Source: a bacterium (GTDB lineage Bacteria > Auribacterota > UBA3054). From it: a stretch of DNA of 64,000 bases. The position numbers were made by a program, and so were the translations under genes. The notes below the pieces were generated by a model that searched no databases, was not told the origin of the DNA, and saw only the letters and a program-made list of their open reading frames with translations. Shown here piece by piece: positions 9,263-33,659 of this stretch; the first letter of the stretch is position 1, and every line of letters begins with the position of its first letter. The stretch lies in assembly GCA_017649705.1 (NCBI GenBank), contig JAGCGH010000081.1, forward strand, positions 206 through 64,205, written 5' to 3'.

Positions 9263-10099
9263 TTATTTGATATTGATTTTATCGTAAAAAGGTAAATCGT
9301 TTCTAAAATATAATTTTGAATCTACTCCATAATCGGATTTTTCACAAGCAAAATATCTTAAAGACAATAAATGCTTTTCATACGAATTAGCAAACTCAAC
9401 AATTTTATTAAATAAAATTTGATTAATATTTTTTTTTAGTAAATTCTGATGCTTATCAATATTACCAAAGATTCCATAATAATGTTTAATTGTTGAAAGC
9501 AATCCTTTTTCGTTAATTGAAACGCCACTAAACACCTCATTTTCATCACGATTGTTATCGTAATAATATAAACGTATTTTTCGGCCAGCAAAACATTGCG
9601 TATCTATTTCAACAGCTATCCTTGCGGGAACACCTATATTCTTTGCCGTTTTAAAAATTGACATATTTTTAGGGAAGGCAAATTCAATTAAATATTCTAA
9701 ATATCTGAACGGATTAATACGATTAAAATCGACTTGCGGTTCTAAGCGAAGTGTGAAATCAGAATCTGAAGATTTAAAAGATGGATCAATACTAAAAGGG
9801 CATTCATTATATGAAAATACATGTTTCGCCAATGAATTAGAAAACAAATTTAAATAATAATTGTATATTTCTAACCGTCTTTTTGTTTGCTCATATGGGC
9901 CTAAAGAAATTGGTTCTATTAAATAAACGGCAGTCGATTTTATATAGCCATTTGCTAAAGAAAAACCAATAAATTCAACTTCGTAAATACCAGGAATTTT
10001 GCTAGCCTCAATACGTTTCAAGAGAGAACTAATATCCAACTGATTATCAACAAGATTCATTAAACAATCGTATATTCTTTCTTTATCTTTTATAATCAC
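9263..10099 (-). CDS. Hypothetical protein (278 aa), island-encoded, no recognisable motif
   Basis: Clean ORF with AT-rich codon usage and a K/N/Y/I-rich protein. It lies at the downstream end of the radical-SAM gene string in the same orientation. Confidence 0.45.
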   Translation of the reverse strand: MIIKDKERIYDCLMNLVDNQLDISSLLKRIEASKIPGIYEVEFIGFSLANGYIKSTAVYLIEPISLGPYEQTKRRLEIYNYYLNLFSNSLAKHVFSYNECPFSIDPSFKSSDSDFTLRLEPQVDFNRINPFRYLEYLIEFAFPKNMSIFKTAKNIGVPARIAVEIDTQCFAGRKIRLYYYDNNRDENEVFSGVSINEKGLLSTIKHYYGIFGNIDKHQNLLKKNINQILFNKIVEFANSYEKHLLSLRYFACEKSDYGVDSKLYFRNDLPFYDKINIK

Positions 10100-10179
10100 A
10101 GAAAAACTTCTCCATTAAATTATTCAGATATTGTGATTTTATAACTTTATATTTTGTTCTCAACATTAACTAAAAAGGA

Positions 10180-11364
10180 TTATCTAAAAAGTGCTTGATT
10201 CCCTATAGCCGAGGAAGCATCATCGCATAATGATAAATCTGATAATAGCTTTTCTGCTTCGTCTCTTGATAAATCTGACAAAAAACCTCGTGATAATCCT
10301 AGCAATGAAAGCTTTTGTTCTATATGAGACCAAATTATTTTATTAGTAATACATTCTTCTTCAAACCAACCAAAAAGCTTAGAATGAAGACAACCAGCGA
10401 TACAAAGTGTCCGCCATTTGCACGTGCCACACTTAGAAAAGCAAGGTTCTTTTTCAACTAAAAAGGATATTTTTTTCTTATTTTCAATTACTTGTTCTAC
10501 TGTGTCAGAATACACATTACCTATTGAATATGAATCAGAATCAAAACGACCACAAGGAAGCAATTCGCCATTATGTGCAATACTTAAAAAAGTATCAGAA
10601 CACCTACCATTGATGCTACATAATTTAGAGATGTTCATTAAATAAGCAAGAACTGCCCCTTGAACGGTTTCAACATTTGCAGGGTGCTGATCATTTAACC
10701 AAATATCAAAAAGTTCACAAACCCCATTTGCGTACTGCTCAGCAGTAACTGATTCAGCCATAAAGCAAGTTCCTTTATAGGAAGTCGGAAACATTCTATT
10801 AAGCCTAAACGGGATTCCCAACGCCTTAAACCATTCATAAAGTTCATTTATTCTTCCAACATTGCTGGCTGTCATCATAGTTATAGCCCCTAAATTTAAG
10901 CCAGCTTGCTTTAATGACATTGCTCGTTTTAAAATAATATCAGAAGCATCATCTCCATTTGGGAACAACCGATAATTAGATTGGAAATCCAAAGAAAAAC
11001 CTATTCGTGAACCAAACGACTCTTTAAGAAGCGGTATGAAATCATCTGAAGCCAAAGTTAGATTAGTCTGAATCTGATTTCTAACACCGATAGATAATTC
11101 ATTAAATTTTTTAGTATAATAATTTACACATTCCTTTATAAAGTCCAACCCCATCAAAAGAGGTTCACCACCATGCCAAATCACAGTAACTTCTTTAACA
11201 TTTAACTTACAGCAATAAGACATTATCCAGTCAAAACTTTTTTTTGCCTCGTCAATATTCATCATTCCATCAAAATCGTTTCGATCACGAGCGGCATAAC
11301 AATAACGGCATCTTAAATTGCAACGACTTGTGGGTTTAAAAATTATTGATAATTGATTAGCCAT
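10180..11364 (-). CDS. Radical SAM / SPASM-domain enzyme (anSME-like or peptide-modifying maturase family)
   Basis: CxxxCxxC motif KPTSRCNLRCRYCYA near the N-terminus. The C-terminal SPASM-like cysteine cluster is CSINGRCSD…LPCGRFD…CFSKCGTCKWRTLCIAGCLH. The track ORF starts at 11433; the start MANQLSII (about 11364) is more likely, giving a short overlap with the upstream gene. Confidence 0.8.
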   Translation of the reverse strand: MANQLSIIFKPTSRCNLRCRYCYAARDRNDFDGMMNIDEAKKSFDWIMSYCCKLNVKEVTVIWHGGEPLLMGLDFIKECVNYYTKKFNELSIGVRNQIQTNLTLASDDFIPLLKESFGSRIGFSLDFQSNYRLFPNGDDASDIILKRAMSLKQAGLNLGAITMMTASNVGRINELYEWFKALGIPFRLNRMFPTSYKGTCFMAESVTAEQYANGVCELFDIWLNDQHPANVETVQGAVLAYLMNISKLCSINGRCSDTFLSIAHNGELLPCGRFDSDSYSIGNVYSDTVEQVIENKKKISFLVEKEPCFSKCGTCKWRTLCIAGCLHSKLFGWFEEECITNKIIWSHIEQKLSLLGLSRGFLSDLSRDEAEKLLSDLSLCDDASSAIGNQALFR

Positions 11365-11377
11365 TGTTTTTGTCCAA

Positions 11378-12508
11378 TTATAAAATTTTAGATATTTTCT
11401 TTGAGTAACAATCCTCAAAACTTTCAATTTCATTTAATTGTAGATACTGTTGAACATAAGAAATTGTTTCAAGTGTATATTCACTTCTATAGCCGCAACA
11501 GGACTCGTGACAATTTTTATTAGGTTCACCCCAACACGAACCGGAACAAATATTATTTATATAACTATCACACTCCCTACAAACGTTCAATACTATCTGA
11601 TCATGTTTCCGCTTATAAGCTTCAATAATATCTTGTGGAGCACTAAAATAATAATTTCCTATTGACATATCAAACTTTCGACAATAACTTAATATTGCTC
11701 CATTCCCACAAATAGACAATTTCCAATAAGGTTCATTAACATCCGTACAACAAAACGGACGCTTGAGAAGAATGGAACGAGCTATTGCTGCAAAATTAGT
11801 AAACTTAAAACTTACTTCGCGCTCTCTAGTATATAAATCAAATAAAGCTATTACATAATCATTATATTCGTCCACAGTCAAATATTGTTCAAGCCTTTTT
11901 CCGTCAGGCGAATGTGCACGATTAACACGAAACATATCCACATGTTTACTATACCAATCATAAAGTTTTTGAGGTGGTTGCAAATCATTTTTTATTAGGG
12001 TACTTACAATTCCAACGCGAATATCCTTAGTATGTAAATAGTCTATTGCACGTTCAATATCAATAGCCGCGTTGCGACCATTTACATATTTCCTTGCTAA
12101 CCCATATGGTTCAAATGATCCGCCTATAAATCCATCAAAATATTCTTTGATTAAAAAACAAATCTTTTCGTTAACCAAAGTGAGATTGCTTTGCAACCTA
12201 TTAATAAATTTAATATCTGATCCTTCAAAACATCGTCTTTGCTCATTCAAAGCATTTTCAAGATTTGCTTCTCCATATAGCAACGGCTCACCGCCAAACC
12301 ATGTAAAATCAATAAATTTAATATCTAAAAAGTTACAGTATTTTATTAGCCAGGTATATGCTGCTTTAAAATCAAAAATACTCATATCGCCATAAGATGT
12401 GTCTGATACATAACAATAATCACACCTCATATTACAGCGATGTGTTGGCGATATGAGCACTGTCAATTTATCTGATGACACTATGCCTGAGAAGTCCAAG
12501 AACCGCAA
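11378..12508 (-). CDS. Radical SAM / SPASM-domain enzyme, second tandem copy
   Basis: CxxxCxxC motif ISPTHRCNMRCDYCYV. The C-terminal Cys-rich SPASM-like region is CCTDVNEPYWKLSICGNG…CRECDSYINNICSGSCWGEPNKNCHESCCG. The start is a TTG directly after an in-frame TGA, so the exact start is uncertain. Confidence 0.8.
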   Translation of the reverse strand: MRFLDFSGIVSSDKLTVLISPTHRCNMRCDYCYVSDTSYGDMSIFDFKAAYTWLIKYCNFLDIKFIDFTWFGGEPLLYGEANLENALNEQRRCFEGSDIKFINRLQSNLTLVNEKICFLIKEYFDGFIGGSFEPYGLARKYVNGRNAAIDIERAIDYLHTKDIRVGIVSTLIKNDLQPPQKLYDWYSKHVDMFRVNRAHSPDGKRLEQYLTVDEYNDYVIALFDLYTREREVSFKFTNFAAIARSILLKRPFCCTDVNEPYWKLSICGNGAILSYCRKFDMSIGNYYFSAPQDIIEAYKRKHDQIVLNVCRECDSYINNICSGSCWGEPNKNCHESCCGYRSEYTLETISYVQQYLQLNEIESFEDCYSKKISKIL

Positions 12509-12630
12509 TCAATATATTCTTTATATGAGATTGAAGAACTAGGTTTGGAGACTCTATGAAGAGCTATCCCAATGATTCTTTGTAATGCCGGTATATTTTT
12601 TGCGGCGATAATTACTTCTTTCTTTTCCAT
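12481..12630 (-). CDS. Candidate RiPP precursor peptide (49 aa), not in the ORF track
   Basis: Minus strand: AAAGAGGAG, then 7 nt, then ATG. Translation: MEKKEVIIAAKNIPALQRIIGIALHRVSKPSSSISYKEYIDCGSWTSQA*. It overlaps the first 28 nt of the radical-SAM gene in a different frame. Hand-translated from the sequence. Confidence 0.35.
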   Translation of the reverse strand: MEKKEVIIAAKNIPALQRIIGIALHRVSKPSSSISYKEYIDCGSWTSQA

Positions 12631-13006
12631 TTTAAATCTCCTCTTTGCCCTTTAAATTATTAAATCTCGTGTTTACCAAAGGGCTTGATAAACATCTTCC
12701 TTCCTTTCTATTAATGAAAAACTTTTTCATCAATATAAAAGAAAAAATAAGTTACATATATTATATCAAAAAAAGAAGTTAAAAGGAAATAACCCGTTGA
12801 TTTTTTGAATTGAAATAGGATTAAAATATTATTAGCAAGACATTTATATAGGTAGTCGGGTCTAAAAGCGTACATGTTTTTCGTATATACTTTAAAATTT
12901 AATGTGGATCTTAAAAAATATGATGATTTAAATAATAGTTGTGCTTAAAAGTTAATTGTATATCTGTGTCAACATCTCTTCCTCTTTCACTAATTAGTTT
13001 TCCTAC

Positions 13007-18581: not shown

Positions 18582-21505
18582 TATCTAACAGCGCCATCAT
18601 CGCCTCCGCCGGCACGGGCAAGACTTTCCGCCTGGCCAAACGCTATATCAAGCTCCTGAGCCTGGGCGTCCGCCCCTCGGAGATAGTGGCGCTCACTTTC
18701 ACCAACGCCGCGGCCCACGAAATGCTCCAGCGCATCCTGCTGGATCTGGCTAACGCCGTCCTCAGCGAAAAACACCTGCGGGATCTTTACGCTTCCGCCG
18801 GTTTGGACGGCGTCCCCAGCAAGGAGGAATGCGAAAAATGGCTGGAGCTTCTCATAAGGGAACTGCCTTTTGCCAAAATCTCCACCTATGACAGTTTCTT
18901 CTACAAGCTGCTGCGCTGTTTCGCTTTCGACCTCGGTTTGGATCCCACCGTGGAGATCCTTGACAAAAAGTTCCAAAACCAATTTCTGAAAGACGCCCTG
19001 GACGAACTTCTGGTCCTGAAAAGCAGGGATCCGGCCAGACTTTTCTCCCTTCTGGCCTCGCTGAGCGAAGACAACGAGCTGCGCCGAGCCACCAAAACGA
19101 TCCTGGAGGCGCTTGGGAAGCTGGCTGAACAGAGCCTCTCCATTCCTCCGGAAACCGTGGCGAGAATACGGCTCAGCTCCCCTGTGTCAGACTTCGAGCC
19201 GAAGGAGCTGCACACTTCTCTTCCTAAGAAAAAAAGCGTTCTGGAAACGCTTTTCAACGCTGTTTCCAAAGCGGCGGCTACCGGGAAATGCTCCGATCTT
19301 ACCAGTAAAAATTCCCAGGTCAGAAAGCTCCTCGAGGACGGCAAGCCGGACTGGTCCAATATCGACGATTTGATGCTGACAGAGGAGTCGCTGGAGGATC
19401 TGAAAAACATGCTGCGCTACCTCGGCACCCGCGAGATCATGAAAAGGCGCGGCGAAACGGCGGCGGCCTACGAGCTGGCCCGGGATTTCCAGAAAGTCCT
19501 GCTGGCCCTTAAATTCGAGCGGAATCTCTTCACCTTCTCGGACGTCTCCCTGGCCGTCTCGAAGCTTCTGGCGATCCCGGAGATCGGACTGGAGGTTTAT
19601 TTCCGTCTCAACACCGGCATCAGCCATTTTCTGATCGACGAGTTCCAGGACACCTCCTGGCAGCAATGGGAGATCATGAGCCCCCTGGCGGATGAAGCGA
19701 TCTCAGACGATGAAAAAAGTCTTTTCGTGGTCGGCGACGTCAAGCAATCAATCTACAGCTGGCGCGGCAGCTCCCCGGAGATCTTCAACAAATTCCTCGA
19801 ACGTTACGAGGAGGGATTCGAAACGGAACAGCTCTTCAAAAGCTTCCGCTCCGTTCCGGATGTCCTGACCATGGTCAACCGGATCTTCGCCCTGCCCTGT
19901 TTCGCCGACTGGGTCAAGGATGTCCGCTACCGGGAGCATATTTCCGCTGTAGGCGGATCAGGCTTCGCTTCCATAAGTTTCGTCGAGGACTCGAAAGAAA
20001 TTTTTGAGGCGGCGGTCAAACCTTTGGAGGAGATCGCTCCCTGGAAACGCGGCCTTTCTTCCGCCGTCCTTTGCCGGAAAAACGACCAGGTGGAAGAGGT
20101 GCTCGCGCTGCTGAAAGAACGGGGCATCCCCTGCGCCACGACCTCCAACGTCACCATAAAGGAATATCCCGAGACCAGGATCTTGCAGGCCTTTTTGCGC
20201 TGCCTGTCCGATCCCGGCGACACGCTTTCCCTCTTCATTCTTAGGAATTCTCCCCTGAGGTCGCTCTTCCCGGAAGACGACCTCGGGGAAACGCTTTCCG
20301 GCTGGAGAAGGCGGCTTCTCAGGGACGGCGTTTTCGAAACGGTCTCACGCCTGCTGGCGGCCTGGAAGGAGGACGCCGATCCCGCCGAAGCACGGAGCGT
20401 TTCCCGGAATCTTTCCGACTTCATGCAGGCGGTCGCCGCCTACAAGGGTTGTCCGAACGACTTGGAAGGCCTGATGGATTACCTTGAAAACTACGAGCAC
20501 CCCCGCGAGAAAGTCGACACCGGGAAAGTTATCGTCTCCACTATCCACACGGCCAAAGGCCTCACCTACGACATGGTCGTGGTGCCGGTAAAAGATCTTC
20601 CTCTCAGCGAGATCAAACCGGGCAGCTATCTTAAGGGCGAGATCCCTTCCAAAGGCTTCGAGCGGCCGCGAGTGTCGACTTTCATCAAGAAATGCAACAA
20701 GGTCGCCTATTTCGCTTCCGAAGAATATTACGATCTGGAAAGAGAGCTTCTTGACAAAAATTACCTGGAAAACTGCAATCTTTTCTACGTGGCCCTTACC
20801 AGGGCTTCCAAAGCGCTCTATATCGTCTGCGACAAGTCAAAATCCGAATTAAAGTTCAATTCCCATCTGCAGGCGCTGGAAGGCTACGTCGGAAAGAGCG
20901 ACTGGTACGAAAAAGAAGCGTCTGAAAATACTCCCGCCGAAGGGCAGGCGGAAACCTTCCTCTCACCTGTCTTCAACGGCAGGCTGACCAGAAGGCGCCA
21001 AACTGTCTCGCCTTCTCTAATCGCTCACGAAGGAAGCGAAGGGGAAGCGGCGGCTGGCTTCGCTGCGCCGGACCTGGGAAGGGAAGCGGCCATGCGGCGC
21101 GGCAGCGCTATCCACGCTTATTGCGAAAGCATCCTATGGCTCGACGGCGAGATCTCGGAACCCGCGGATCTTCCCAAGGAGGAGGCCGCGGAAGCCAAGG
21201 CGGTCATTGACGCTTACATCGCCAGGCATCCCGAGAACGTTTTCGTAAAGCCCGCGGAGGAATGCGAAGTCAGGCGCGAGATGCCCTTCATGTTCCTCAG
21301 GGATGACAAGCTTATAAAAGGCATCATGGACAGAGTGCATTTCTTCCCATGTGCGCAGGATCCAAAGAAGATCGTCGTTTACGATTTCAAGACCGGCAGC
21401 GAGCACGAGGAGAATGAGAAGCAGATCGACCTTTACGTGAGCGTTTTGAAGGAGTCCTTCGGGATAGAGGACGTCAGGGGCGAGCTGATCTACCTGGAGA
21501 AATAA
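18572..21505 (+). CDS. addA: AddA/RexA-like UvrD-family helicase with a C-terminal PD-(D/E)xK nuclease
   Basis: Walker A motif SAGTGKTF a few residues after MPVISNSAIIA. UvrD-like motifs are LIDEFQDTS, VGDVKQSIYSWRGS and LYVALTRASKALYIV. The C-terminal nuclease is …VYDFKTGS…ELIYLEK. The ATG at 18572 overlaps the addB stop (ATGCCGGTGA). Confidence 0.7.
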   Translation: MPVISNSAIIASAGTGKTFRLAKRYIKLLSLGVRPSEIVALTFTNAAAHEMLQRILLDLANAVLSEKHLRDLYASAGLDGVPSKEECEKWLELLIRELPFAKISTYDSFFYKLLRCFAFDLGLDPTVEILDKKFQNQFLKDALDELLVLKSRDPARLFSLLASLSEDNELRRATKTILEALGKLAEQSLSIPPETVARIRLSSPVSDFEPKELHTSLPKKKSVLETLFNAVSKAAATGKCSDLTSKNSQVRKLLEDGKPDWSNIDDLMLTEESLEDLKNMLRYLGTREIMKRRGETAAAYELARDFQKVLLALKFERNLFTFSDVSLAVSKLLAIPEIGLEVYFRLNTGISHFLIDEFQDTSWQQWEIMSPLADEAISDDEKSLFVVGDVKQSIYSWRGSSPEIFNKFLERYEEGFETEQLFKSFRSVPDVLTMVNRIFALPCFADWVKDVRYREHISAVGGSGFASISFVEDSKEIFEAAVKPLEEIAPWKRGLSSAVLCRKNDQVEEVLALLKERGIPCATTSNVTIKEYPETRILQAFLRCLSDPGDTLSLFILRNSPLRSLFPEDDLGETLSGWRRRLLRDGVFETVSRLLAAWKEDADPAEARSVSRNLSDFMQAVAAYKGCPNDLEGLMDYLENYEHPREKVDTGKVIVSTIHTAKGLTYDMVVVPVKDLPLSEIKPGSYLKGEIPSKGFERPRVSTFIKKCNKVAYFASEEYYDLERELLDKNYLENCNLFYVALTRASKALYIVCDKSKSELKFNSHLQALEGYVGKSDWYEKEASENTPAEGQAETFLSPVFNGRLTRRRQTVSPSLIAHEGSEGEAAAGFAAPDLGREAAMRRGSAIHAYCESILWLDGEISEPADLPKEEAAEAKAVIDAYIARHPENVFVKPAEECEVRREMPFMFLRDDKLIKGIMDRVHFFPCAQDPKKIVVYDFKTGSEHEENEKQIDLYVSVLKESFGIEDVRGELIYLEK

Positions 21506-21513
21506 TATTTTTG

Positions 21514-23580
21514 TCAGATCCTGCGGCTGAACTGCAGGAGATAGAGGTCGTAGTAGGCGCCTTTCTTGGCCATCAGTTCCGCGTGGCTGCCCCTTTCTAT
21601 GATCTTGCCGTCGTCCAGAACGAAGATCTCGTCCACCTTGTGGATGGTCGAGAGGCGGTGGGCCACGATCATGCTTGTACGCCCGATCATCAGTTTGTCG
21701 ATGGCGTCCTGGATCAAATGCTCGGTGGCCGGGTCCACGTTGCTGGTGGCTTCGTCCAGGATCAGTATCCTGGGATCATGCGCCAGAGCCCTGGCGAAGC
21801 ACAGGAGCTGTTTTTCGCCGGCGGAGAGCGTGGCTCCGCGTTCCGCCATCACTTCGTCGTAGCCTTTGGGCAGTTTCTCGATGAACTGGTTGGCGCAGAC
21901 GGTCTCGGCGGCCTTGATGGCTTTCTCCCTGGTGATGGTCGGGTCTCCCAGGGCGATGTTCTCATAGATGGAGCGGCTGAAGACGAAGGTTCCCTGCAAG
22001 ACGATGGAGATGTGCTTCCTCAATTCCTCGTTGGACCAATCTTTGACGTTCACGCCGTCTAAGAGCACCTCCCCCTTGTTGGCGTCGTAGAAGCGGCAGA
22101 CCAGGTTTATAAGGGAGGATTTCCCGGCGCCGGTGGGGCCCACGACGGCGATGCTCTTGCCGGGCTCGATCTTGAAGGAGACGTCTTTCAGGACCTGCTC
22201 GTCCTCGATGTAGGAGAAGTCCACGTTCCGGAATTCCACTTCGCCTTTCGGATCAGGGACTATCACAGGATTTTCCGGCTGGGCTACTTCGTTCTTGGTG
22301 TCGAGAAGCGTGAAACTCCTTTCCAAAGATGACAAACTGGTTTGAAGCTGAGTTATTTGACCGCTTATTTGAGTGATAGGATTATAAAGATTGTCTAAAT
22401 AAGTAATAAAAGCCATTAATGAGCCAAGAGTAAGATTGCCTTTCAGCACACAAACACCGCCATATAAAACAACAAGTGCGGTTCCAAAATGCTTAAGAAG
22501 ATCAAGGGCAGGACCAAAAATGCCCATATAAATAACGTTTTTAAACCCTACTTTATAATAAACGTTATTTATAATGACAAACATATCCCTCATACGCTTC
22601 TGCTGATTAAAAGATTGAATAATCTTAATACCAGAAAAAACTTCTATCAAACTTCCATTTATTCCAGATAGCATCCTACGTAATTCTCTTTGAACTTTTC
22701 TCATCATTATTCTAAAGAAAAAAGTAATTAAAACGCAAAAAGGGAGAAGTGTAAGAGCAATCAATGAAAGTCTCCAGTTAATGAAAAAAACAATAATTAA
22801 AGAGCCGACAAACATTGTAACGCTAACTAACATTTGGACAGCTACCGTAGACAGCATTGTATTAATAGCCTCAATATCGTTCGTAACTCTTGTGACAAGG
22901 CTGCCGATAGGAGTTCTGTTGTAAAGGGAAACAGATAGACTCTGAAGATGATTGAATAGCTCCATTCTAAGAGTGTACATCGTGCGCTGGCTGGCTACTT
23001 CAAGCGTAAGTCTATGGAAATAATCGGCAAAAGCACGAATTATAAGAACTATTAAAAAAAAGAGAAACATCCTCTTCAAGCCTTTAATATCCGTGCCCCT
23101 TATCTTAGTCAGCAGCATGGGGTCGATGTCCGCGAACTGGCTGTCCGGCACGAACCAGTTGCCGCCGTAAACGAAGCCGTGGGTCCCGTCGTAATCAACT
23201 TCCGGGAAGACGTAGTGGTTCTCGCCCTTGTCCTTTATGGAGTCGCTGATGTCCTTGTTCTTTTCCAAAAAACTCATGGGTACGGCGAGGGTGTCGCCGC
23301 CGGCCTTGATGGAAACTTCGGAAAGTTCGGGATATTTATTGAGGACTTCCTGATCGGGCTTTGCGAAGGTGTATAAGGGAACGAGATAGTTGTCTATGCT
23401 CTTCCTGTAGATGTTCGGCGTGATGAGCTGGGTGGCCGAAGAAAGCGCCAGAAAGAGCAGCGCCAGGAAGATGTAGAGCTTCTGGGGAGAGGCGTAGCCC
23501 AAAAAGCGCCTGATATAGCTTATATCAAAGCCGCTTTTATACTGGGCTTCCGAATCAAAATCATGATGATCGTGACTCAT
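21514..23580 (-). CDS. ABC exporter, fused TMD-NBD half transporter with an unusual ~100-aa extracytoplasmic insert after TM1
   Basis: Walker A GPTGAGKSS, signature LSAGEKQ and Walker B ILILDEAT. Six TM helices. The central ~800 nt (about 22300-23110) is conspicuously AT-rich, with A/T-ending codons. Confidence 0.8.
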   Translation of the reverse strand: MSHDHHDFDSEAQYKSGFDISYIRRFLGYASPQKLYIFLALLFLALSSATQLITPNIYRKSIDNYLVPLYTFAKPDQEVLNKYPELSEVSIKAGGDTLAVPMSFLEKNKDISDSIKDKGENHYVFPEVDYDGTHGFVYGGNWFVPDSQFADIDPMLLTKIRGTDIKGLKRMFLFFLIVLIIRAFADYFHRLTLEVASQRTMYTLRMELFNHLQSLSVSLYNRTPIGSLVTRVTNDIEAINTMLSTVAVQMLVSVTMFVGSLIIVFFINWRLSLIALTLLPFCVLITFFFRIMMRKVQRELRRMLSGINGSLIEVFSGIKIIQSFNQQKRMRDMFVIINNVYYKVGFKNVIYMGIFGPALDLLKHFGTALVVLYGGVCVLKGNLTLGSLMAFITYLDNLYNPITQISGQITQLQTSLSSLERSFTLLDTKNEVAQPENPVIVPDPKGEVEFRNVDFSYIEDEQVLKDVSFKIEPGKSIAVVGPTGAGKSSLINLVCRFYDANKGEVLLDGVNVKDWSNEELRKHISIVLQGTFVFSRSIYENIALGDPTITREKAIKAAETVCANQFIEKLPKGYDEVMAERGATLSAGEKQLLCFARALAHDPRILILDEATSNVDPATEHLIQDAIDKLMIGRTSMIVAHRLSTIHKVDEIFVLDDGKIIERGSHAELMAKKGAYYDLYLLQFSRRI

Positions 23581-25355
23581 TTCCCCTCCTCGATGACGGC
23601 GCTCTGAAGCATATAGAGCTCCTTATAATAGGGCGAGCGTTCCTTCAGCTCCTCGTGGGTGCCGATGTCCTCTATTTTCCCGTTGTTCAGAACGATGGTG
23701 CGGTCGGCGTTCTTCACGGCGGAGAGGCGGTGCGCTATTATGATGTTGGTGGCGCCTCCTCTCAAAGTTCCAAGCTCCTTCAGGATCTCGCTCTCGGTCT
23801 CCGCGTCCACCGCGGAAAGGGCGTCGTCCAGGACCAGTATCCTGGGTCTCAAGGACAGGGCCCTGGCGATGGCGATCCTCTGTTTCTGTCCGCCGGACAA
23901 GGTGACGCCTCTCTCCCCCACCCAGGTGTCGTAGCCGTCCTTGAAGCGCATGATGTCGTCGTGGATGAAGGCTTTCTTGGCCCAGTAGACGACTTCCTCG
24001 TCGTCCATTTCAGGCCTGGCGAAACGGATGTTATCCTTTATGGTCATGCTGAAGAGGAAGGGCTCCTGGGGCACGTAGCCGTAGACGCCCCTCAGCTCGT
24101 CCAGCCTGTATTCCGAAACGTCCCTGCCGTTCAGCAGGACCGTTCCCTTGGGCGGCGAATAGAGCCGCATGCAAAGGTCCACCAAGGTCGTTTTGCCGCA
24201 GCCGGTGCGTCCGACTATTCCGAGCGTCTCCCCTTCCGCCACGTGGCAGGTGATGTTTTCCAGAGCGTTCTTTACGGCGCCGGGATACTTGTAAGTGAGG
24301 TCCTTTATTTCAAGGAGAGTCTTCCCCTTCACCTTTTCCTTTCCGTCCTTGATGGCGCTCTCCTCGTCCAGGATGGTCTGGATCCTTTCCGAACTGGCGC
24401 AGCCTCTCTCCAGGTGGTTGATGACTTCGCTGATGGCGATCATGGGCCAGGTCATGGTCCCCAGGTACATGTAGAATTTCGTGAAGGTGCCCAGGGGCAT
24501 CTCGCCCATGATGATCCTTTTTCCGCCGAACCACAGCAGAAGCGCCATGCAGAGGTTGGAGACCACCATGATGAGAGGGCCCATCATGGCCCACTTCCTG
24601 ACCAGGGCGATGCTGTTGTCCACGTAGGCTCTCCCCTCTTTGCCGAAGGAATCAAGGGAGGCCTCCTCGTCGCCATAGGCTTTGACCACCATGATGCCGG
24701 CGAAGATCTCCTGGGCTCTTTCGTTCATGGCGGAAAAGGCCTCCTGGACTTTGCCGAACAAAACTCTTATCTGCCGGCCGATTATCCTGACCACCACCAT
24801 GATGATGGGCGCGGGGATGAGCACCAGGAGCGCCAGTTTCCAGTTTTCCGTCAGCATCAGAACGATGATGGCGCTGCCCATGACCAGGGAGTCCGCCCCC
24901 GCCAGCATGCCGAAGGCCACGGAGTGCTCCACCGCCTGCACGTCGTTGGTCATGTGCGCGGTCAGATCCCCCACCCTGTGCTTGTCGAAATACTCGGGCG
25001 GCATGGTCTGCAGATGGTCGAAGATCTTCTGCCTCAAGTCGCGGTTTATTTTCAGGCCCACGCCGGAAAAACAATAGCGCCACAAAAAGCGGAAAAAGAT
25101 GCCGCAGGTCATGATCCCGATCATAGTGAGGCACAGTCTCGTAAGGAGCTCCCTGGTGGCCGTGCCGTCGGACAAAGCGTCGAAAGCCTGCCCGATGAAG
25201 CGCGGCATCAGAAGCACCGCCATATCGATGCAGGCCAGGCCCAATACGCCTATTAGGAAGCGGTAGCGGTACTGCCAGACATAGCCCAGCAGGATCTTCA
25301 TGCCCGCTTTGGTTATCTTATCACCCTGGGATCCGCCGTGAAAATGTGGAGGCAT
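23577..25355 (-). CDS. ABC exporter, fused TMD-NBD half transporter (probable heterodimer partner)
   Basis: Walker A GRTGCGKTT, signature LSGGQKQR and Walker B ILVLDDALSAVD. There is a 4-nt overlap with the downstream ABC gene. Confidence 0.8.
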   Translation of the reverse strand: MPPHFHGGSQGDKITKAGMKILLGYVWQYRYRFLIGVLGLACIDMAVLLMPRFIGQAFDALSDGTATRELLTRLCLTMIGIMTCGIFFRFLWRYCFSGVGLKINRDLRQKIFDHLQTMPPEYFDKHRVGDLTAHMTNDVQAVEHSVAFGMLAGADSLVMGSAIIVLMLTENWKLALLVLIPAPIIMVVVRIIGRQIRVLFGKVQEAFSAMNERAQEIFAGIMVVKAYGDEEASLDSFGKEGRAYVDNSIALVRKWAMMGPLIMVVSNLCMALLLWFGGKRIIMGEMPLGTFTKFYMYLGTMTWPMIAISEVINHLERGCASSERIQTILDEESAIKDGKEKVKGKTLLEIKDLTYKYPGAVKNALENITCHVAEGETLGIVGRTGCGKTTLVDLCMRLYSPPKGTVLLNGRDVSEYRLDELRGVYGYVPQEPFLFSMTIKDNIRFARPEMDDEEVVYWAKKAFIHDDIMRFKDGYDTWVGERGVTLSGGQKQRIAIARALSLRPRILVLDDALSAVDAETESEILKELGTLRGGATNIIIAHRLSAVKNADRTIVLNNGKIEDIGTHEELKERSPYYKELYMLQSAVIEEGK

Positions 25356-25361
25356 AAAAGG

Positions 25362-25964
25362 TCAGCGGCGGTTGCGGTAAAGGTTGGGATCGACCACGGC
25401 CTTCATGGCCTCCTCGTCGAGTTTGCCGCCCACGAAAACGTTTATCCTGGGGATCCAGTCGGCGGGGTCGCGCATAAGGTCGTTGTAGTTGACAAAAAAG
25501 ACTGTAAAGCAAGGATTGGCGTCCAGAAAGGACAGCACTTCGCTCAAATGCCTGTGATATGTCGTGATCATCTCCTCGTCGGAAACTTTGTCGGTCGCCT
25601 CGCCCCGGCGCACAAGCATCCGCTTTTGGGAAGCCAGGATCTCCTCGATGTCCCGGCGCATGAAGAGCACCTTGTAGCGGTAGCCCTTCAGGGGAAGCTT
25701 CGTCAGCAGCAGGGCGATTATTTTGACCGCCTTCCCTTTCGCCTCGGGAAGCCAGGCGGTGTCCTTGGGAAGTTTTTTCACCCGCTCGAATTCGTAGTAG
25801 CCCTTGGGGTTGTCTTCGTCCGCGGTCCTGATGTTGTCCTGGAGAGGAGGAATTCCTCCCGCTTCCAGCATCTTCATCATCATGGAGGTGCCGGAGCGCG
25901 GCAGCCCGGAGACCACCGTGATCTCGGGAGAGATGATGTTTTTCAAAAACGAAAGGAAAGCCAT
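25362..25964 (-). CDS. Sulfotransferase-family protein (cytoplasmic, PAPS-binding-like motif)
   Basis: 200 aa. N-terminal 5'-PSB-like motif VVSGLPRSGTSMM. Small Stf0-like architecture. Confidence 0.55.
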   Translation of the reverse strand: MAFLSFLKNIISPEITVVSGLPRSGTSMMMKMLEAGGIPPLQDNIRTADEDNPKGYYEFERVKKLPKDTAWLPEAKGKAVKIIALLLTKLPLKGYRYKVLFMRRDIEEILASQKRMLVRRGEATDKVSDEEMITTYHRHLSEVLSFLDANPCFTVFFVNYNDLMRDPADWIPRINVFVGGKLDEEAMKAVVDPNLYRNRR

Positions 25965-25965
25965 T

Positions 25966-26754
25966 TTATTTTTCCTTGCGGACCATGACCGCCACCGGGC
26001 AGTCGATGTATTCGTCGCTGAAGAGCACGGACCCTTTCATGCTGTCAAGTACGTCCATGCTGGCCACGGCCAGATCGACGCTGCCTACGCCCGCCGCCTC
26101 GTAGAGGTCGGAGTAGTCCATTACGACTATTTCCGCCTTGACGTTGAGGTAAAGGGCCAAACGCTTGATCAGTTCGATGTTGAAGCCCGTGAGCTCGCCC
26201 TTCTCGTTAAGGAAGTTCATGGGCGTGTTCTCGGTCTCGGTGGCGAACTTCAAAGTGGCTCTGGGTTCCTTTGCCTCGCCAATTTTCGGCATAGCGGAAT
26301 GCGGCTTCTCGATCCAGCGGCGGTACATTTCCTTGTAGGTGCCGTCCTCCTTGTATTTTTTGATGAAAGCGTTGACCTCTTTCATAAGCGCTTTGTTATT
26401 CAGGGAGGAGGCGATGGCCACATGCCCGTCGGCGAGATCCTCGGGCAGCACCACGAAGTAATCTTTGTAAAGCGCCGCGGCGTAATCAAGCGTCGGCCTG
26501 TCGAAGACCGCTGCGTCGATCTTTTTCGTCTGCAGCGCGGGGTACAGCTGCTCCACGGAGGCGAAGGGCACCATTTCCGCGTAGGTGAAGCGCTTCTTGG
26601 CCAGGCGGTAGGCTTCCGTCTGCTGGCTGCCGCCCACCTTGTAAATGGGATTGTTCAGCTGAACGACCGTGGTAATCTGGTTGTAGTTGACGGAGGAGCA
26701 GCCGGCCGCCAAAAGCGCGGCCAGGGCGAGAAAAAGCTTTTTCAGGGTTCGCAT
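25966..26754 (-). CDS. Lipoprotein; ABC-type substrate-binding protein, family 3 (amino-acid/polar type)
   Basis: Lipobox LLAAGCSS, and a periplasmic binding fold-like sequence of ~260 aa. Confidence 0.6.
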   Translation of the reverse strand: MRTLKKLFLALAALLAAGCSSVNYNQITTVVQLNNPIYKVGGSQQTEAYRLAKKRFTYAEMVPFASVEQLYPALQTKKIDAAVFDRPTLDYAAALYKDYFVVLPEDLADGHVAIASSLNNKALMKEVNAFIKKYKEDGTYKEMYRRWIEKPHSAMPKIGEAKEPRATLKFATETENTPMNFLNEKGELTGFNIELIKRLALYLNVKAEIVVMDYSDLYEAAGVGSVDLAVASMDVLDSMKGSVLFSDEYIDCPVAVMVRKEK

Positions 26755-29322: not shown

Positions 29323-32300
29323 TTATTGAGTTATGACCACACGAAAGCCGAAGCCGAGGTTGACGACGCCAGGGTCGGGGGCGAAGCTGATGCGGGTGGC
29401 AGAGCGGCAGAGGTCGGGGTAGAAGCCCCAGCCCCCGCCCCGGATCACACGGGAGCTGCCTGAGCTCGCGCCCCTGGGATCGGTTTCCGACCCGGCGTAT
29501 GAGCCGTACCAATCCAAGCACCATTCCCACACGTTGCCGTGCATGTCATAAAGACCCCAAGCGTTGGGAGAATAGGAACCAACTGTAGTATGTTCGCTAT
29601 ATCCGCCTTTGCCGTCGTTGCGGTTACAATAGTAACGAGCCAACTTTGCCAGGCAGCCGTCGCTGACCGTATTGGTAATATTGTTACCGTCGTTCAGCGC
29701 GGTAGTCGTGCCTGCCCTGCAGGCATACTCCCATTGTGCTTCCGTGGGCAGATCGAAGACGTTTCCCGCCTTTTTCCTCAATTGTCCCATAAAACTCCAT
29801 TCGTCAACTCCGTGATCCTCCGGCCAAGCGAAACCTTTTGCAAATCCTCTGAGCTTATTGTAGGAAACTTCTTCCACTGGCCTCATGTCGCCAGTGTTAT
29901 ACGAAGGATTTTCACCAAAAATATTCTGGAATTGCTTCTGCGTCGTTTCAAAGACGCCTATGTAGTAAGCTTTGGTAAGTGTTACTTCGCGCTGCGTCTC
30001 TTCGTTACTTCTGCCCAATTCGTCCTCGGGAGATCCCATGTTGAACGTTCCCGGCTCGATCCTTCTGAGCCAGAGTTCATCCGTGCGGCATTTGTTGTCT
30101 GTCGTATCCGGCGCATCTGAAGAGACCCTCATCTTGTTGCTAGTTGTATCAAGGACAAGATAGGCCGCTTGTTCCGTCACATCTTCGTATTCAACTCTCA
30201 ATTCCACTTCATCCATTATGTTGGTGTAAGCCGCGTCCGAAATCCAGGTCAATTTATGCAGACCCGCTCCAACCACTATTCCGCTGGCTCCGTCATATTC
30301 GATTTCACCCATTTCAGCTAAAGGCTTTTCCGTTCCGTTCGGCAGTTTTCCAAATAACTTCACTTTAAAAACCGGCAGGGTGTTTTCTGTCCCGGATTTG
30401 ATCTCAAATTCAAAATCCTTTTTATTTTTCTGTCCAGAAAACACATTTTGAACTAGGACAACACGAAAGCCGCCGTCTATCAAATGGTCGGAGGGGGAAT
30501 TTCTGCCGGCACGGTTGGCAGAGCGGCAGTAGCAGGCGGATTTGAGCCAGCTCCCGCCCCGGGCCACACGACAGCTGCCTGAGCTCGCGCCTACGGGTTC
30601 TGTAACAGGATCGGTGCCAAGATCTTCCTGATACCAATCCAAGCACCACTCGAACACGTTGCCGTGCATATCGTAGAGGCCACAGGCGTTGGGAAGATAA
30701 GAGCCAACTACGGCGTGATAATTATCGGATCCGCCGTTGTAGCTGTAGCGTCCAACTTCATCCATGTTTTGGCACTGCTCTTCGTTGGTCAGATCCTTCC
30801 CACTGTTCAGCGCGGTGGTCGTGCCTGCCCTGCAGGCCATTTCCCATTGCGCTTCCGTGGGAAGGTCGAAATTCATTTGCGTTTTGGAGCGAAGTTTTCC
30901 GAAAAAGGAGTCTTCGTCCACATCATAATTATAAGGCCAGCTTGCGCCGAAACGTTTCCCGCGGATCATATTGTAGGAAACGTTCTCTACCGGCCTAACA
31001 TCGCCTTTATAATATGACGGATCGCTTCCTGTAATTAATTCGTATTGCTTCTGCGTCGTTTCAAAAACGCCGATGTAATAAGCGTTTGTCAAAGTTACCT
31101 GGTGTTGAGTTTCATCAATGTATCTCCCTAATTCGTCAGTGGGGCTGCCCATGGTGAATATCCCCGGCTCTATCTTCCGCAGGACCAGTTTCGTGGTCTT
31201 GTATTCTTCCGTCCAGCCGCCCTCGGGAACATCGTCAAGCAAACTGACGGGATACAACTCAGCTTCTGGACCGCCGCTCAAATCGACGACAATGTATTTC
31301 TCTTTCTCAGCTTTTTTGAAAGTTGCAAGAAGTTCCGTGTCTTTGGTTAGCGTCAGTTTCAACGGATTTTCGTATGAAATGTTTCCTTCCCACTCAAAGC
31401 TCTTAAAAAACTCCTCGCCAGGGATCGCTGTAACCACGACTTCTTCAGAGTCTACGAACGAATAACTGACAGAACCTTTTCCGGAAATCGTTACATTGAG
31501 AGCATAATTCCCAAAGACCGCCTCGACAAGCGTGTCTTCTTCCAAAACGAGCGTCATTTCGCTGTCCTGGCATCTTTCCCCATTCACAGTGAAGCAGCGG
31601 AACTTGTCTTTATTTTCTGTAACTTTAACTTCCACTTCGTCAGGCCCAATGAACTCAGCGCTTGCGGATCCTTCGCCGACAACCTTGAGTGAAAAGTCAT
31701 AAGATCCGAAGGCCGCCTGGACTTCTGTGTCTTCCAGAAGTTCCAACGTCATGAAATCATTCGTTACCTTTGTGCCTTTATAGAAAAAATAGCGGAACTT
31801 GTCAGGATTCTTCGTAACCCTAAACTCGACCTTGTCAGGTTCGCAATAACCGGAATACACATCGCCGTCGCCGATAATTTCCAAAGAGTAATCGTATTTG
31901 TTCGTGAATATGTACTCGCTTTCAAGAATAGCGGGATAGGCGGCTTCAGGGGAAAGAGTATACTTGGCGGTGGCCTTTCCTTTGGAATTTACGGAAACCT
32001 TCGCCTGTATATCGTTATAGTTGCAGGAGAATTTGTAATTCTTGCCTTTCGGTTGAAGACTGAAGACTAAGGAAGCAAGATATCCCAGACTCTGATCGGC
32101 GCACAGTTTGTCAAAGACAGTAAGCCTTTTAGTTTCGAGTTCCGCAAGTTTAGATGTATCAATGGTGCCTTTAGATTTTAAAACAGCCTTGTCAGGCCGT
32201 ATCCTTTCTTTTCCGGTCACGAATGTGAAATAAGGCGTGACGTCCTTTTCCGTCCATTGAAATTTTCCGTTTTTTGTTTTTACGGAAACGTTCCGCGTCT

Positions 32301-32640
32301 CGGTCTTTTCTCCGTATCCCGCTTTCGTTGTCGGAAGCAAAGTCGGAAACGCCAGATAACTGTCCAGGGAGTTGTAGATCGCCATGGGGATTCCGCCTGA
32401 GATGCTTTGCATGGCAGCGTCATTCATCTGCCCGCTTAAACTAAGCGTGGTCGTTCCTTTGATAAAGCCGCAGGCGTTCACCACTCTTTGCGTAGCGATA
32501 GAACCGGCGAATATCTCTCCGGCCATAGAGAAGATCGTGGCTACGATAAGCAGGATGGATCTTTTCATATATTCTCCCAAAAACTGATTTGGTTTGCTTT
32601 GGCAAAAATTATAACTAGCCTTGTTATAAAATTTTACCAA
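29323..32640 (-). CDS. Large secreted protein with two FGE-sulfatase (SUMF1/DUF323) domains
   Basis: 1105 aa with a signal peptide. Two modules each contain …AYYIGVFETTQKQ…DLPTEAQWE(Y/M)ACRAGTTTALN…YDMHGNV(F/W)EWCLDWY…RV(A/I)RGG(S/G)W…CRSA.R…GFRVV…. Confidence 0.7.
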   Translation of the reverse strand: MVKFYNKASYNFCQSKPNQFLGEYMKRSILLIVATIFSMAGEIFAGSIATQRVVNACGFIKGTTTLSLSGQMNDAAMQSISGGIPMAIYNSLDSYLAFPTLLPTTKAGYGEKTETRNVSVKTKNGKFQWTEKDVTPYFTFVTGKERIRPDKAVLKSKGTIDTSKLAELETKRLTVFDKLCADQSLGYLASLVFSLQPKGKNYKFSCNYNDIQAKVSVNSKGKATAKYTLSPEAAYPAILESEYIFTNKYDYSLEIIGDGDVYSGYCEPDKVEFRVTKNPDKFRYFFYKGTKVTNDFMTLELLEDTEVQAAFGSYDFSLKVVGEGSASAEFIGPDEVEVKVTENKDKFRCFTVNGERCQDSEMTLVLEEDTLVEAVFGNYALNVTISGKGSVSYSFVDSEEVVVTAIPGEEFFKSFEWEGNISYENPLKLTLTKDTELLATFKKAEKEKYIVVDLSGGPEAELYPVSLLDDVPEGGWTEEYKTTKLVLRKIEPGIFTMGSPTDELGRYIDETQHQVTLTNAYYIGVFETTQKQYELITGSDPSYYKGDVRPVENVSYNMIRGKRFGASWPYNYDVDEDSFFGKLRSKTQMNFDLPTEAQWEMACRAGTTTALNSGKDLTNEEQCQNMDEVGRYSYNGGSDNYHAVVGSYLPNACGLYDMHGNVFEWCLDWYQEDLGTDPVTEPVGASSGSCRVARGGSWLKSACYCRSANRAGRNSPSDHLIDGGFRVVLVQNVFSGQKNKKDFEFEIKSGTENTLPVFKVKLFGKLPNGTEKPLAEMGEIEYDGASGIVVGAGLHKLTWISDAAYTNIMDEVELRVEYEDVTEQAAYLVLDTTSNKMRVSSDAPDTTDNKCRTDELWLRRIEPGTFNMGSPEDELGRSNEETQREVTLTKAYYIGVFETTQKQFQNIFGENPSYNTGDMRPVEEVSYNKLRGFAKGFAWPEDHGVDEWSFMGQLRKKAGNVFDLPTEAQWEYACRAGTTTALNDGNNITNTVSDGCLAKLARYYCNRNDGKGGYSEHTTVGSYSPNAWGLYDMHGNVWEWCLDWYGSYAGSETDPRGASSGSSRVIRGGGWGFYPDLCRSATRISFAPDPGVVNLGFGFRVVITQ

Positions 32641-32663
32641 AAAGGCAAATCATCGTGATCGAC

Positions 32664-32690
32664 AATAAAAAAGGCCCGCGACGCGGGCCT
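32664..32690 (-). terminator. Intrinsic terminator for the short FGE-domain gene
   Basis: Minus-strand reading: aggcccgcgtcgcgggcct followed by ttttttatt. Confidence 0.6.
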
Positions 32691-32774
32691 CAATATTCAA
32701 GCTCACCTCCGCTTGCTTTCAGCCTGCGCGTCGGGCTCACGCCCATGCCGCGCCCCGGCTGAAGCAAGGATAAA

Positions 32775-33659
32775 TTAATGAACTAGGACTACACGAAAGC
32801 CGTGGACGTCGTAGGCGTAGACGGGGTAGTAGTAGTCGCGGCGGGCAGAGCGGCAGTCGTCGGCGTCGTCGCCCCAGCTCCCGCCCCGGAGCACACGGTA
32901 TTTGCCAAAGCCTGCGCCAAGCGGATCAGTCACGGGATCTGTGCCCAGATCATCCTGATACCAATCCAGGCACCACTCATTCACGTTGCCATGCATATCG
33001 TAGAGACCCCAAGCGTTGGGAAAATAGGAGCCGACCGCGGCGTGATAGTTATAAAAGCCGCCGTTGTTAAGATATATAAAGAACAAATTTTTCCCGCTGT
33101 TCAGCGCCGTGGTCGTGCCTGCCCTGCAGGCGTACTCCCACTGCGCTTCCGTGGGAAGGTCGAAAATCAGATTTGTTTTGGAACGTAGTTTACCGAAGAA
33201 GGAGTCTTCGTCCACATCATGATTATAAGGCCAACTCGATCCTTTATTCTTCCCGCGAAGCACATCATACGAAACATATTCCACCGGCCTTACATCTCCT
33301 TTTCTAAGAGACGGATTGCTTCCGGTGATTAATTCGTATTGCTTCTGCGTTGTTTCAAAGATGCCGATGTAATAAGCGTTGGTAAGAGTTACTTCGTGCT
33401 GAGTTTCGTTATAGTCTCTGCCCAATTCGCCCTTGGGGCTGCCCATAGTGAATGTTCCTGGCTCGATCCTCCGCAAGACAAGCTTTGTGGTCTTGTCTTC
33501 GTCCGTCCAGCCACCCTCGGGAACATCGTCGAGCCAGCTGATGGGATACCTTTCTGCGTCTGGACCGCCGCTAAGATCGACGACAATGTATTTCTTTTTC
33601 TCCGCGTTTTTAAAAGCGTCAAAAATTTCCGTGTCTTTGGCTGGCGTTAATTTATCCAT
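32775..33659 (-). CDS. FGE-sulfatase (SUMF1/DUF323) domain protein; a recent partial duplicate of a module of the upstream 1105-aa gene
   Basis: 294 aa; FKNAEKKKYIVVDLSGGPDAERYP…ACRAGTTTALNSGK…YDMHGNVNEWCLDWY…RVLRGGSW…CRSARR…GFRVVLVH. It is ~85% identical in protein to residues around FKKAEKEKYIVVDLSGGPEAELYP… of the large gene. There is no signal peptide of its own. Confidence 0.6.
   Translation of the reverse strand: MDKLTPAKDTEIFDAFKNAEKKKYIVVDLSGGPDAERYPISWLDDVPEGGWTDEDKTTKLVLRRIEPGTFTMGSPKGELGRDYNETQHEVTLTNAYYIGIFETTQKQYELITGSNPSLRKGDVRPVEYVSYDVLRGKNKGSSWPYNHDVDEDSFFGKLRSKTNLIFDLPTEAQWEYACRAGTTTALNSGKNLFFIYLNNGGFYNYHAAVGSYFPNAWGLYDMHGNVNEWCLDWYQDDLGTDPVTDPLGAGFGKYRVLRGGSWGDDADDCRSARRDYYYPVYAYDVHGFRVVLVH

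Follow-up and report, generated by a model that had tools for sequence, protein, structure and literature searches.

Mosaic genes created by recombination between species are well known, penA, pbp2x, and mtrD being familiar examples. In Neisseria gonorrhoeae, the mosaic alleles of the mtr efflux pump (mtrD/mtrR) derive from commensal members of the genus (Wadsworth et al. 2018, PMC6083905); penA mosaics have been described in Neisseria as well (PMC9600782). The subject of this study is a gene encoding one half of an ATP-binding cassette (ABC) exporter, gene 2 of a gene pair, which lies in a 64,000-nt stretch of DNA (positions 206 to 64,205 of contig JAGCGH010000081.1, assembly GCA_017649705.1; the whole stretch is called the window) from a bacterium of the lineage UBA3054. 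It is very probable that gene 2 is a natural intragenic mosaic formed by homologous recombination, in which the region of the transmembrane helices TM2–TM6 came from a diverged, AT-rich allele and both ends are native. Like the mtr and penA mosaics, it would be a chromosomal gene that was partly replaced by the diverged allele of a related species and became a functional and polymorphic mosaic. Unlike mtr, which encodes a resistance-nodulation-division (RND) pump, gene 2 belongs to a predicted ATP-driven ABC heterodimer, and unlike in the Neisseria mosaics, the probable imported tract corresponds to a structural module, TM2–TM6, deviates by ~23 GC points from the host, and was found in an uncultured rumen lineage. 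The Neisseria donors are similar in composition to the recipient. UBA3054 is a phylum in GTDB with the proposed name Candidatus Hicupiota, whose 15 genomes (37.9–64.5% GC) come from the rumen and other sources (PMC11382960), and it is also listed as a rumen phylum (PMC11177756), whereas NCBI assigns no phylum to it. A syntenic orthologue with 83% identity links the window organism to this lineage.

Architecture of the exporter pair

The pair examined here is predicted to resemble BmrCD (YheI/YheH) of Bacillus subtilis (PDB 7m33, 8szc, and 9cus), a heterodimeric exporter of the type-IV fold with one degenerate ATP site and with an extracytoplasmic domain inserted between TM1 and TM2 of one of its subunits, yet the identity of BmrCD to gene 2 amounts to only ~31–32% and the isolated extracytoplasmic domain of gene 2 has no sequence match to BmrD. 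TM287/288 and TmrAB show the same motif asymmetry as the pair and gave the best structural matches to gene 2, but they have no extracytoplasmic domain and their identity to it is ~32–35%. The parts of the pair are as follows (GC3, GC fraction at third codon positions; ICL, intracellular coupling loop; NBD, nucleotide-binding domain; ORF, open reading frame).

21514..23580, minus strand: gene 2, ABC exporter half-transporter of 688 amino acids (aa), from the ORF and Pfam
23095..23580, minus strand: GC-rich 5′ part of gene 2, residues 1–162 (N-terminus, TM1, extracytoplasmic domain), native as judged by GC3 and identity
22315..23094, minus strand: low-GC segment of gene 2, probably imported, residues 163–422 (TM2–TM6 and both intracellular coupling loops), GC 34.7%, GC3 0.32
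22801..23094, minus strand: sub-block A of the segment, residues 163–260 (TM2, ICL1, TM3), intermediate GC3 of 0.40–0.45
22315..22800, minus strand: sub-block B of the segment, residues 261–422 (TM4, ICL2, TM5, TM6), lowest GC3, 0.20–0.30
21514..22314, minus strand: GC-rich 3′ part of gene 2, linker and NBD, residues 423–688 plus the stop codon, native as judged by its GC3 of 0.75–0.95
23577..25355, minus strand: partner half-transporter gene, from the ORF and Pfam, GC-rich throughout in the window

The gene 2 protein is identical to NCBI MBO7435266.1, and exactly this protein is present on eight contigs. Its assignment to the ABC exporter half-transporters of the type-IV fold (ABCB-like) relies on Pfam matches, motifs, and fold. 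Both ABC_membrane (PF00664, E = 7.6e-45) and ABC_tran (PF00005, E = 2.6e-31) were detected, and since the ABC_membrane match (residues 166–397) covers positions 38–269 of the 274-position profile, TM1 falls outside it. The motif SLVTRVTNDIEAIN occupies residues 227–240, and the NBD contains Walker A GPTGAGKS, Walker B ILILDE, the deviant signature LSAGE, and AHR. In an AlphaFold model built on a 32-sequence alignment (pLDDT 81.4), TM1 (helix 20–66) is followed by an alpha/beta extracytoplasmic domain of ~95 aa (67–160), the five helices TM2–TM6 (162–214, 225–267, 269–317, 327–379, and 385–426), and the NBD. The closest folds were those of TmrA, TM288, and BmrD, with TM-scores of 0.69–0.84 for TM287/288 and TmrAB. 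BmrD/YheH was the only solved chain that could be aligned by sequence across almost the whole of gene 2 (residues 36–685, E = 2e-115), and this full-length alignment spans the ~95-residue alpha/beta insertion of gene 2 at the same position between TM1 and TM2. The extracytoplasmic domain searched alone gave no PDB sequence match at E <= 1; this domain (window 23095–23400, residues 60–162) is the quickest-evolving part of the protein in distant homologues. None of the NCBIfam models reached its cut-off on gene 2 (MsbA 437 vs 602, SmdB 358 vs 746), and the named families that failed the curated cut-off include MsbA, SmdAB, CydDC, HlyB, and the bacteriocin/PCAT exporters.

The partner gene lies upstream of gene 2 and overlaps it by 4 nt (ATGA). 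As its protein combines a Walker B motif without the catalytic Glu (ILVLDD) with a canonical LSGGQ signature, and gene 2 combines ILILDE with LSAGE, one of the two ATP sites appears degenerate, and the gene pair is predicted to encode a heterodimeric ABC exporter of the BmrCD/TM287-288 type.

Composition and ancestry of the membrane core

Analysis of gene 2 in 20-codon bins revealed a GC3 of 0.60–0.90 at residues 21–160 (the first 20 codons are an exception to the 0.6–0.9 of the 5′ part), 0.20–0.45 at residues 161–420, and 0.75–0.95 at residues 441–680. An earlier note, made from the window sequence alone, had placed flips of codon usage at residues ~157 and ~427 and had suggested such a plot; the dip was found where it was expected, and both positions agree within a few codons with the junctions obtained from codon alignments with the nearest orthologues, which lie at residues ~158–163 (5′ junction, window ~23107–23092) and ~422–424 (3′ junction, window ~22315–22309). 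The GC content at codon positions 1+2 is nearly constant along the ORF, thus the step reflects codon choice and cannot be put down simply to hydrophobic residues. The typical GC3 of the window genes is ~0.8, and gene 2 is the only one of 39 in which 100-codon GC3 spans 0.25–0.89, the others varying by no more than 0.3; comparably AT-rich genes are only the three of an island at 8.8–13.0 kb. The low-GC segment coincides almost exactly with the TM2–TM6 helices of the model (162–426) and encloses the Pfam ABC_membrane match, which bears out the assignment of the AT-rich stretch to the membrane domain (transmembrane domain, TMD) of the exporter in the earlier note, and the coupling-loop motifs PIGxLVTRVTNDIEAIN and FSGIKxIQSFNQQK are kept in it.

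The step is accompanied by a step in divergence. A maximum chi-square scan with two breakpoints against L004 (L-numbers denote the related loci and contigs compared, P-numbers proteins) placed the breakpoints at residues 173 and 421 with a value of 159.7, compared with at most 23.6 in 100 permutations; the difference rate was 0.35 inside the segment and 0.12 outside. Dip-free orthologues were found in L004–L006 and L010, in seven GTDB species genomes (L011–L017), and in two JGI contigs (L031/L032), and all 13 have a GC3 of 0.7–0.9 along the whole gene, so the comparison with orthologues that the earlier note had recommended turned out in favor of a replacement. L007 is a deeper relative, whose locus is lower in GC (49.6%) and has a moderately low GC3 throughout. 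The 5′ part of gene 2 shares 95% aa identity with L016 and 91% with L004, while the 3′ part (NBD) is 95–97% identical to the genus orthologues. Along the protein, identity to the nearest relatives is 91–95% in the N-terminal part, drops to ~75% in TM2–TM6, and rises to 97% in the NBD. In distant homologues, conservation usually increases from the N-terminus through the TMD to the NBD, an order that is broken between the window and its nearest relatives, and among the dip-free relatives TM2–TM6 is the most conserved membrane part (93–100% identity). The third-position difference from L016 is 0.68 in the segment and 0.23 (5′ part) and 0.30 in the flanks, and the proportion of synonymous differences (pS, Nei-Gojobori) is ~0.8–1.0 in the segment and 0.35–0.46 in the flanks.

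The two kinds of sequence have different histories in neighbour-joining trees. The flanks of gene 2 place the window within the genus clade in 100% of the bootstrap replicates; with TM2–TM6, the window and L033, a second low-GC mosaic described below, are sisters in 100%, the genus clade excludes both in 99%, and the segment branches at about the depth of L007. In addition, the low-GC alleles show FYMINK of 0.35–0.37 versus 0.30–0.33 and GARP of 0.15–0.17 versus 0.20, a rise and a fall expected after long residence in an AT-rich genome. The tree incongruence, the saturation confined to the segment, and this amino acid shift support the recombinational replacement of TM2–TM6 by a foreign low-GC allele, as the earlier note had proposed. 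The dN/dS between the two low-GC alleles is ~0.05, and every residue that is invariant across the aligned family members is kept in gene 2, which suggests that the hybrid gene is functional. Gene 2 therefore has the divergence step, the tree incongruence, and the intact, constrained ORF of a mosaic gene; an identified donor lineage is not among its attributes.

The junctions do not depend on a single assembly. Three loci from different samples are 99.9–100% identical to the window over 5–8 kb including both junctions, and four more 16-kb loci, found via the neighbouring AddA protein, have no mismatch in gene 2 and 8–16 single-nucleotide polymorphisms (SNPs) elsewhere, hence these assemblies represent independent observations. 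Both junctions are thereby reproduced in at least seven independent assemblies from several samples. These otherwise near-identical assemblies are separated by tight SNP clusters in the partner gene (window 24096–24124 and 25239–25264), with six SNPs within 30 nt in L037 and three within 26 nt in L036, L037, and L039; the clusters look like short recombination patches.

The donor was sought in several collections. Protein searches with the full-length sequence and with the partner protein of L033 yielded no donor, and a search with TM2–TM6 only gave two hits, both mosaic-type or fragments; since the latter search missed the known 75% relatives, its sensitivity is doubtful and its negative result is weak. 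In a HMMER search of 1.84 billion representatives, the best match outside the orthologue family was 39% identical. The GTDB species genomes contained seven relatives, all without the dip, the JGI metagenomes only two 74% relatives, the plasmids matches of ≤34% identity, and the phages and viral contigs no match. Nothing nearer to the segment than 82–86% aa identity was found, and the sequences at that level are themselves mosaics. Two candidates were discarded: L007/P0004 as the donor, because its TMD is only 71% identical with a third-position difference of 0.60, and P0005 as a third divergent TMD allele, because it proved to be an L006-type gene with a frameshifted stretch. The segment is 70–82% identical at the aa level to its own orthologue family and ≤39% to anything else, which indicates a low-GC member of the same family as the source, not a Firmicute or a mobile element. 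A foreign allele, as the earlier note had it, is thus upheld, with the refinement that not every low-GC organism qualifies as its donor. As far as can be judged from these identities, the allele most probably came from an as yet unsampled low-GC branch of the window's own candidate phylum (GTDB UBA3054).

Another suggestion of the earlier note, that the segment resembles in composition the radical-SAM island of the window (8.8–13.0 kb), was confirmed by relative synonymous codon usage (RSCU), which correlates between the two with r = 0.63–0.75; the correlation is 0.70 with a low-GC insertion in L011 and −0.24 to −0.30 with the flanks of gene 2 itself. This match reflects a shared AT-rich style and does not show a shared donor. 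The island is low in GC, similar in codon usage, and foreign to the 57% GC genome like the segment, but it is an insertion of whole new genes while the segment is an in-frame homologous replacement, and nothing ties their donors together.

The mosaic probably arose as follows. A ~780-nt tract, comprising the whole membrane core except TM1 together with both coupling loops, would have been replaced by an allele from an AT-rich, only distantly related representative of its orthologue family, while the N-terminal TM1 with the extracytoplasmic domain and the ATPase domain would have been kept. The crossovers may have taken place in the conserved tracts on either side of the membrane core, ...GGNWFVPD...IRG and ...FTLLDTKNEVAQP. 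Retention of the membrane module alone may be due to selection on it or to local alleles, which readily re-convert the highly conserved NBD. Such a swap would exchange the translocation pathway and keep the motor, so the export substrate or the susceptibility to agents that use the pump may change. An altered substrate specificity, considered possible in the earlier note, is speculation. As the window combines a native partner TMD with a foreign gene 2 TMD, mixed TMD dimers seem to be viable.

Strain variation and alternative origins

The P0124 loci L033 and L034 come from two assemblies, and the fragment L009 matches L033 except at 4 nt. Over most of addB/addA and the DUF362 gene, L033 and the window share 97–100% identity; they differ strongly in the block listed first below.

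21100..26700, no strand assigned: strain-variable block, defined against the conspecific L033, comprising the 3′ end of addA, both ABC genes, the sulfotransferase gene, and the solute-binding protein (SBP) gene
25362–25964, minus strand: sulfotransferase gene, upstream of the ABC pair in the same orientation
25966–26754, minus strand: gene of an SBP_bac_3 solute-binding protein, upstream of the ABC pair in the same orientation

The block is 71–96% identical between the window and L033, and its flanks are 92–100%, mostly 97–100%, identical, which indicates conspecific strains that differ by a replaced locus of ~5.5 kb. In every close relative, the sulfotransferase and SBP_bac_3 genes keep their synteny with the ABC pair, and the SBP–sulfotransferase–ABC–ABC order was found in at least 13 dip-free related loci from rumen genomes and contigs. 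L033 also carries a low-GC TM2–TM6 segment with the same two junctions as the window. At residues 163–260, the two alleles have 80% aa identity and a pS of 0.73, at residues 261–422 86% and 0.63, and in the flanks 86% (residues 1–160) and 95% (NBD) with a pS of 0.35–0.42. Moreover, the partner gene of L033 (L033:3289–5004, the counterpart of window 23577–25355) consists of a low-GC membrane domain (GC3 0.23–0.6 over residues ~1–330), equivalent to window ~24180–25380, joined to a GC-rich NBD, whereas the partner gene of the window is GC-rich. This membrane domain is 79–85% identical to all genus alleles, which are 88–96% identical to each other, while the NBD is 90–96% identical to the genus alleles. 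In the sequences compared, the membrane domains of both subunits thus exist as GC-rich and AT-rich allele classes. The replacement claimed in the earlier note was therefore sustained, but not as a single private event, since the haplotype of L033, L034, and L009 has a diverged version of the segment and a low-GC partner membrane domain. Within the block of the window, the SBP gene is nearest to L017/L005 and the ABC genes to L004/L016; considering this mixed affinity, the differences from L033, and the SNP clusters in the partner gene, the locus is a recombination hotspot.

The number of imports can be argued both ways. The two low-GC alleles share both junctions and 36 derived residues, as expected after a single ancestral import, and their synonymous divergence is high with neither allele ameliorated (GC3 ~0.26 in sub-block B), which speaks for separate imports. 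A<->T changes make up 20 of the 69 third-position differences between the two alleles in sub-block B, suggesting that much of their divergence arose in an AT-rich background. At 46 positions both low-GC alleles depart from all genus sequences, and 18 further positions set the window alone apart. If separate imports came from related donors, the crossovers would have fallen into the same conserved tracts by necessity. Sub-block A has its own history: there the window, L033, and the genus alleles are about equidistant from one another (80–86% aa identity), while in sub-block B the window is 86% identical to the L033 allele and only ~70% to the genus alleles, and with L005 as the comparison the best 5′ breakpoint of the chi-square scan shifts to residue 236. 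Sub-block A may be a patchwork that was partly overwritten by genus alleles.

Several points weigh against the interpretation of gene 2 as a recombinational mosaic. No donor was found in the protein collection, JGI, the GTDB genomes, plasmids, phages, or viral contigs; the junctions are documented by metagenome assemblies; the pS of the two low-GC alleles (0.63–0.73) exceeds that of their flanks (0.35–0.42), although they share the junctions, and one old import fits the data as well as repeated imports do; finally, sub-block A is ambiguous, with intermediate GC3 and weak bootstrap support.

Four other explanations were weighed. According to the first, GC-rich and AT-rich TMD allele classes of both subunits form a long-lived polymorphism, kept by diversifying or frequency-dependent selection and shuffled by recombination; this is a refinement of the mosaic interpretation and compatible with it, and we regard it as possible though rather unlikely. 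The selecting agent could be a pump-dependent toxin, peptide, or phage, or the alleles could serve differing substrates. Three haplotypes are consistent with it (both TMDs GC-rich; only that of gene 2 AT-rich, as in the window; both AT-rich, as in L033), as are the 97–100% identity of the conspecific flanks with a far lower identity in the locus, the mutual age of the low-GC alleles (29% of the third-position differences in sub-block B are A<->T), and the different species to which the parts of the locus are nearest. However, dN/dS is low everywhere (0.05–0.13) with no sign of positive selection at this resolution, just two low-GC alleles are known, and each of the two low-GC haplotypes comes from studies and sample sets of its own. 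That the segment is interrupted by a break or a gap in three assemblies also counts in favor of this explanation, but these breaks are equally well explained by the coverage bias of AT-rich DNA, and the end of L009 (1587–1729) is no rearrangement: it consists of 141 nt of the NBD of the contig itself in inverted orientation, an assembler artefact of k = 141. As a further, speculative extension that we consider improbable on present evidence, the TMDs of both subunits would be exchangeable modules that enter from AT-rich relatives again and again and persist within one species as alternative alleles, while the ATPase domains remain constant. If this were true, module exchange would be driven by selection on what passes through or attacks the translocation pathway, and the locus would represent a system for swapping the modules of an ABC pump at the level of the population, as well as a natural experiment on TMD–NBD compatibility.

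It is very unlikely that the segment originated in situ, that is, turned AT-rich within the lineage by a mutation bias of the deaminase type or by selection of AT-rich codons. The differences from L016 are strongly directional (GC>AT 184 vs AT>GC 44), and the donor search was empty, both of which would fit; the boundaries are, however, sharp on the scale of a codon or so, the transition:transversion count is 156:112, and the 112 transversions among the 268 differences include A<->T and G<->C changes, a spectrum that rules out deaminase-type hypermutation. Nor is the segment a long branch beside L016/L004, as it branches outside the whole genus clade; at least 11 relatives with the same protein and membrane topology keep a GC3 of 0.7–0.9, and the partner TMD of the window itself is GC-rich. 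On the basis of divergence, trees, and composition, in-situ hypermutation and codon selection were rejected and the import of a diverged homologous allele was supported.

Conversion from a silent AT-rich TM2–TM6 copy within the genome, in the style of pilE/pilS or vlsE, or rewriting by a diversity-generating retroelement (DGR) is extremely improbable. The variability of the locus between conspecific strains and the identical ends of the replaced tract in two haplotypes would be compatible with such a system, but neither blastn (word size 7) nor tblastn detected a second copy of the segment in the 64-kb window, only the partner TMD with 28% aa identity. Pfam searches of the window genes, in which not every ORF was scanned, revealed no reverse transcriptase, blastn revealed no template repeat, and the substitutions are not adenine-specific. 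The variable regions of DGRs are also far shorter than the 780-nt tract.

Finally, an assembly chimera, in which reads from the orthologue of a low-GC organism were joined to the GC-rich gene via conserved sequence, can practically be dismissed: although every sequence used here is a metagenome assembly and the contigs of the relatives L009, L010, and L035 end or have a gap in this region, the identical junctions occur without any mismatch in the gene in at least seven assemblies with two contig-naming styles (k141_ and METAG-scaffold) that differ by 8–16 SNPs elsewhere in 16 kb, a second, diverged mosaic of the same architecture is present in three further assemblies, and the searches of proteins, GTDB species genomes, and JGI metagenomes gave no contig with a fully low-GC orthologue. 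As to the contig ends themselves, L035 (1846–1994) has a 200-N gap exactly over window 23206–22314, and L010 (3635–3734) ends in a 98-nt foreign tail without a match in Rfam or in the compared loci.

Comparisons at the sequence level thus demonstrate that gene 2 is a mosaic of apparently foreign origin, which is limited to a structural module, intact, constrained, polymorphic within the species, and located in a variable locus.

Neighbouring features and implications

The SBP_bac_3 protein (25966–26754) has a permuted profile order: residues 164–261 match the N-terminal part and residues 23–149 the C-terminal part of GlnH-type models, which suggests a circularly permuted or otherwise rearranged binding protein. 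Two genes with FGE-sulfatase (formylglycine-generating enzyme-like) domains, encoding 1105 and 294 aa, lie at window 29323–33659; their GC (0.49–0.51) and GC3 (0.55–0.59) are below those of the surroundings. A sulfotransferase gene adjoins the ABC pair. In another species (RGIG10100), a 3-kb low-GC insertion (0.26–0.37) is located directly 3′ of the orthologous ABC gene (L011:5065–8064); its 642-aa product is hydrophobic at the N-terminus and matched nothing in Pfam. Searches of both the window and the locus with Rfam and for promoters and terminators revealed nothing relevant.

The low-GC island of the window (8800–13000, GC 0.23–0.38) is flanked by genes for a GH31 glycosidase and a 924-aa protein and contains the following features.

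9263–10099: gene of 278 aa
10180–11433 and 11378–12508, minus strand: two radical-SAM/SPASM peptide-maturase-like genes, with the best NCBIfam matches to anSME/DynA-like models below the cut-off
12481–12630: ORF of 49 aa just upstream of the radical-SAM genes

The 49-aa ORF could encode the precursor of a ribosomally synthesized and post-translationally modified peptide (RiPP). All four loci found via the AddA protein of the window extend to the edge of the island, with the terminal radical-SAM gene and the 49-aa ORF present in each.

In full-text literature searches, which were not exhaustive, no account emerged of an ABC exporter whose TMD had been replaced with domain precision. What is unusual here is that the tract corresponds to a structural module, that it lies ~23 GC points off the host, and that the partner subunit was likewise hit in a conspecific strain. 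Segments of this kind break metagenome assemblies, as in the contigs of three relatives, and can be mistaken for chimeras. The locus attests to active gene flow and to a recombination hotspot in the candidate phylum UBA3054, all knowledge of which stems from metagenomes. A type-IV ABC exporter appears to tolerate there the exchange of its membrane core, coupling loops included, between lineages that are ~25–30% diverged in this region, and the swapped core would still work with the native ATPase domain, the native partner, and the native extracytoplasmic domain, which bears on the evolution of ABC exporter specificity and on the design of chimeric transporters.

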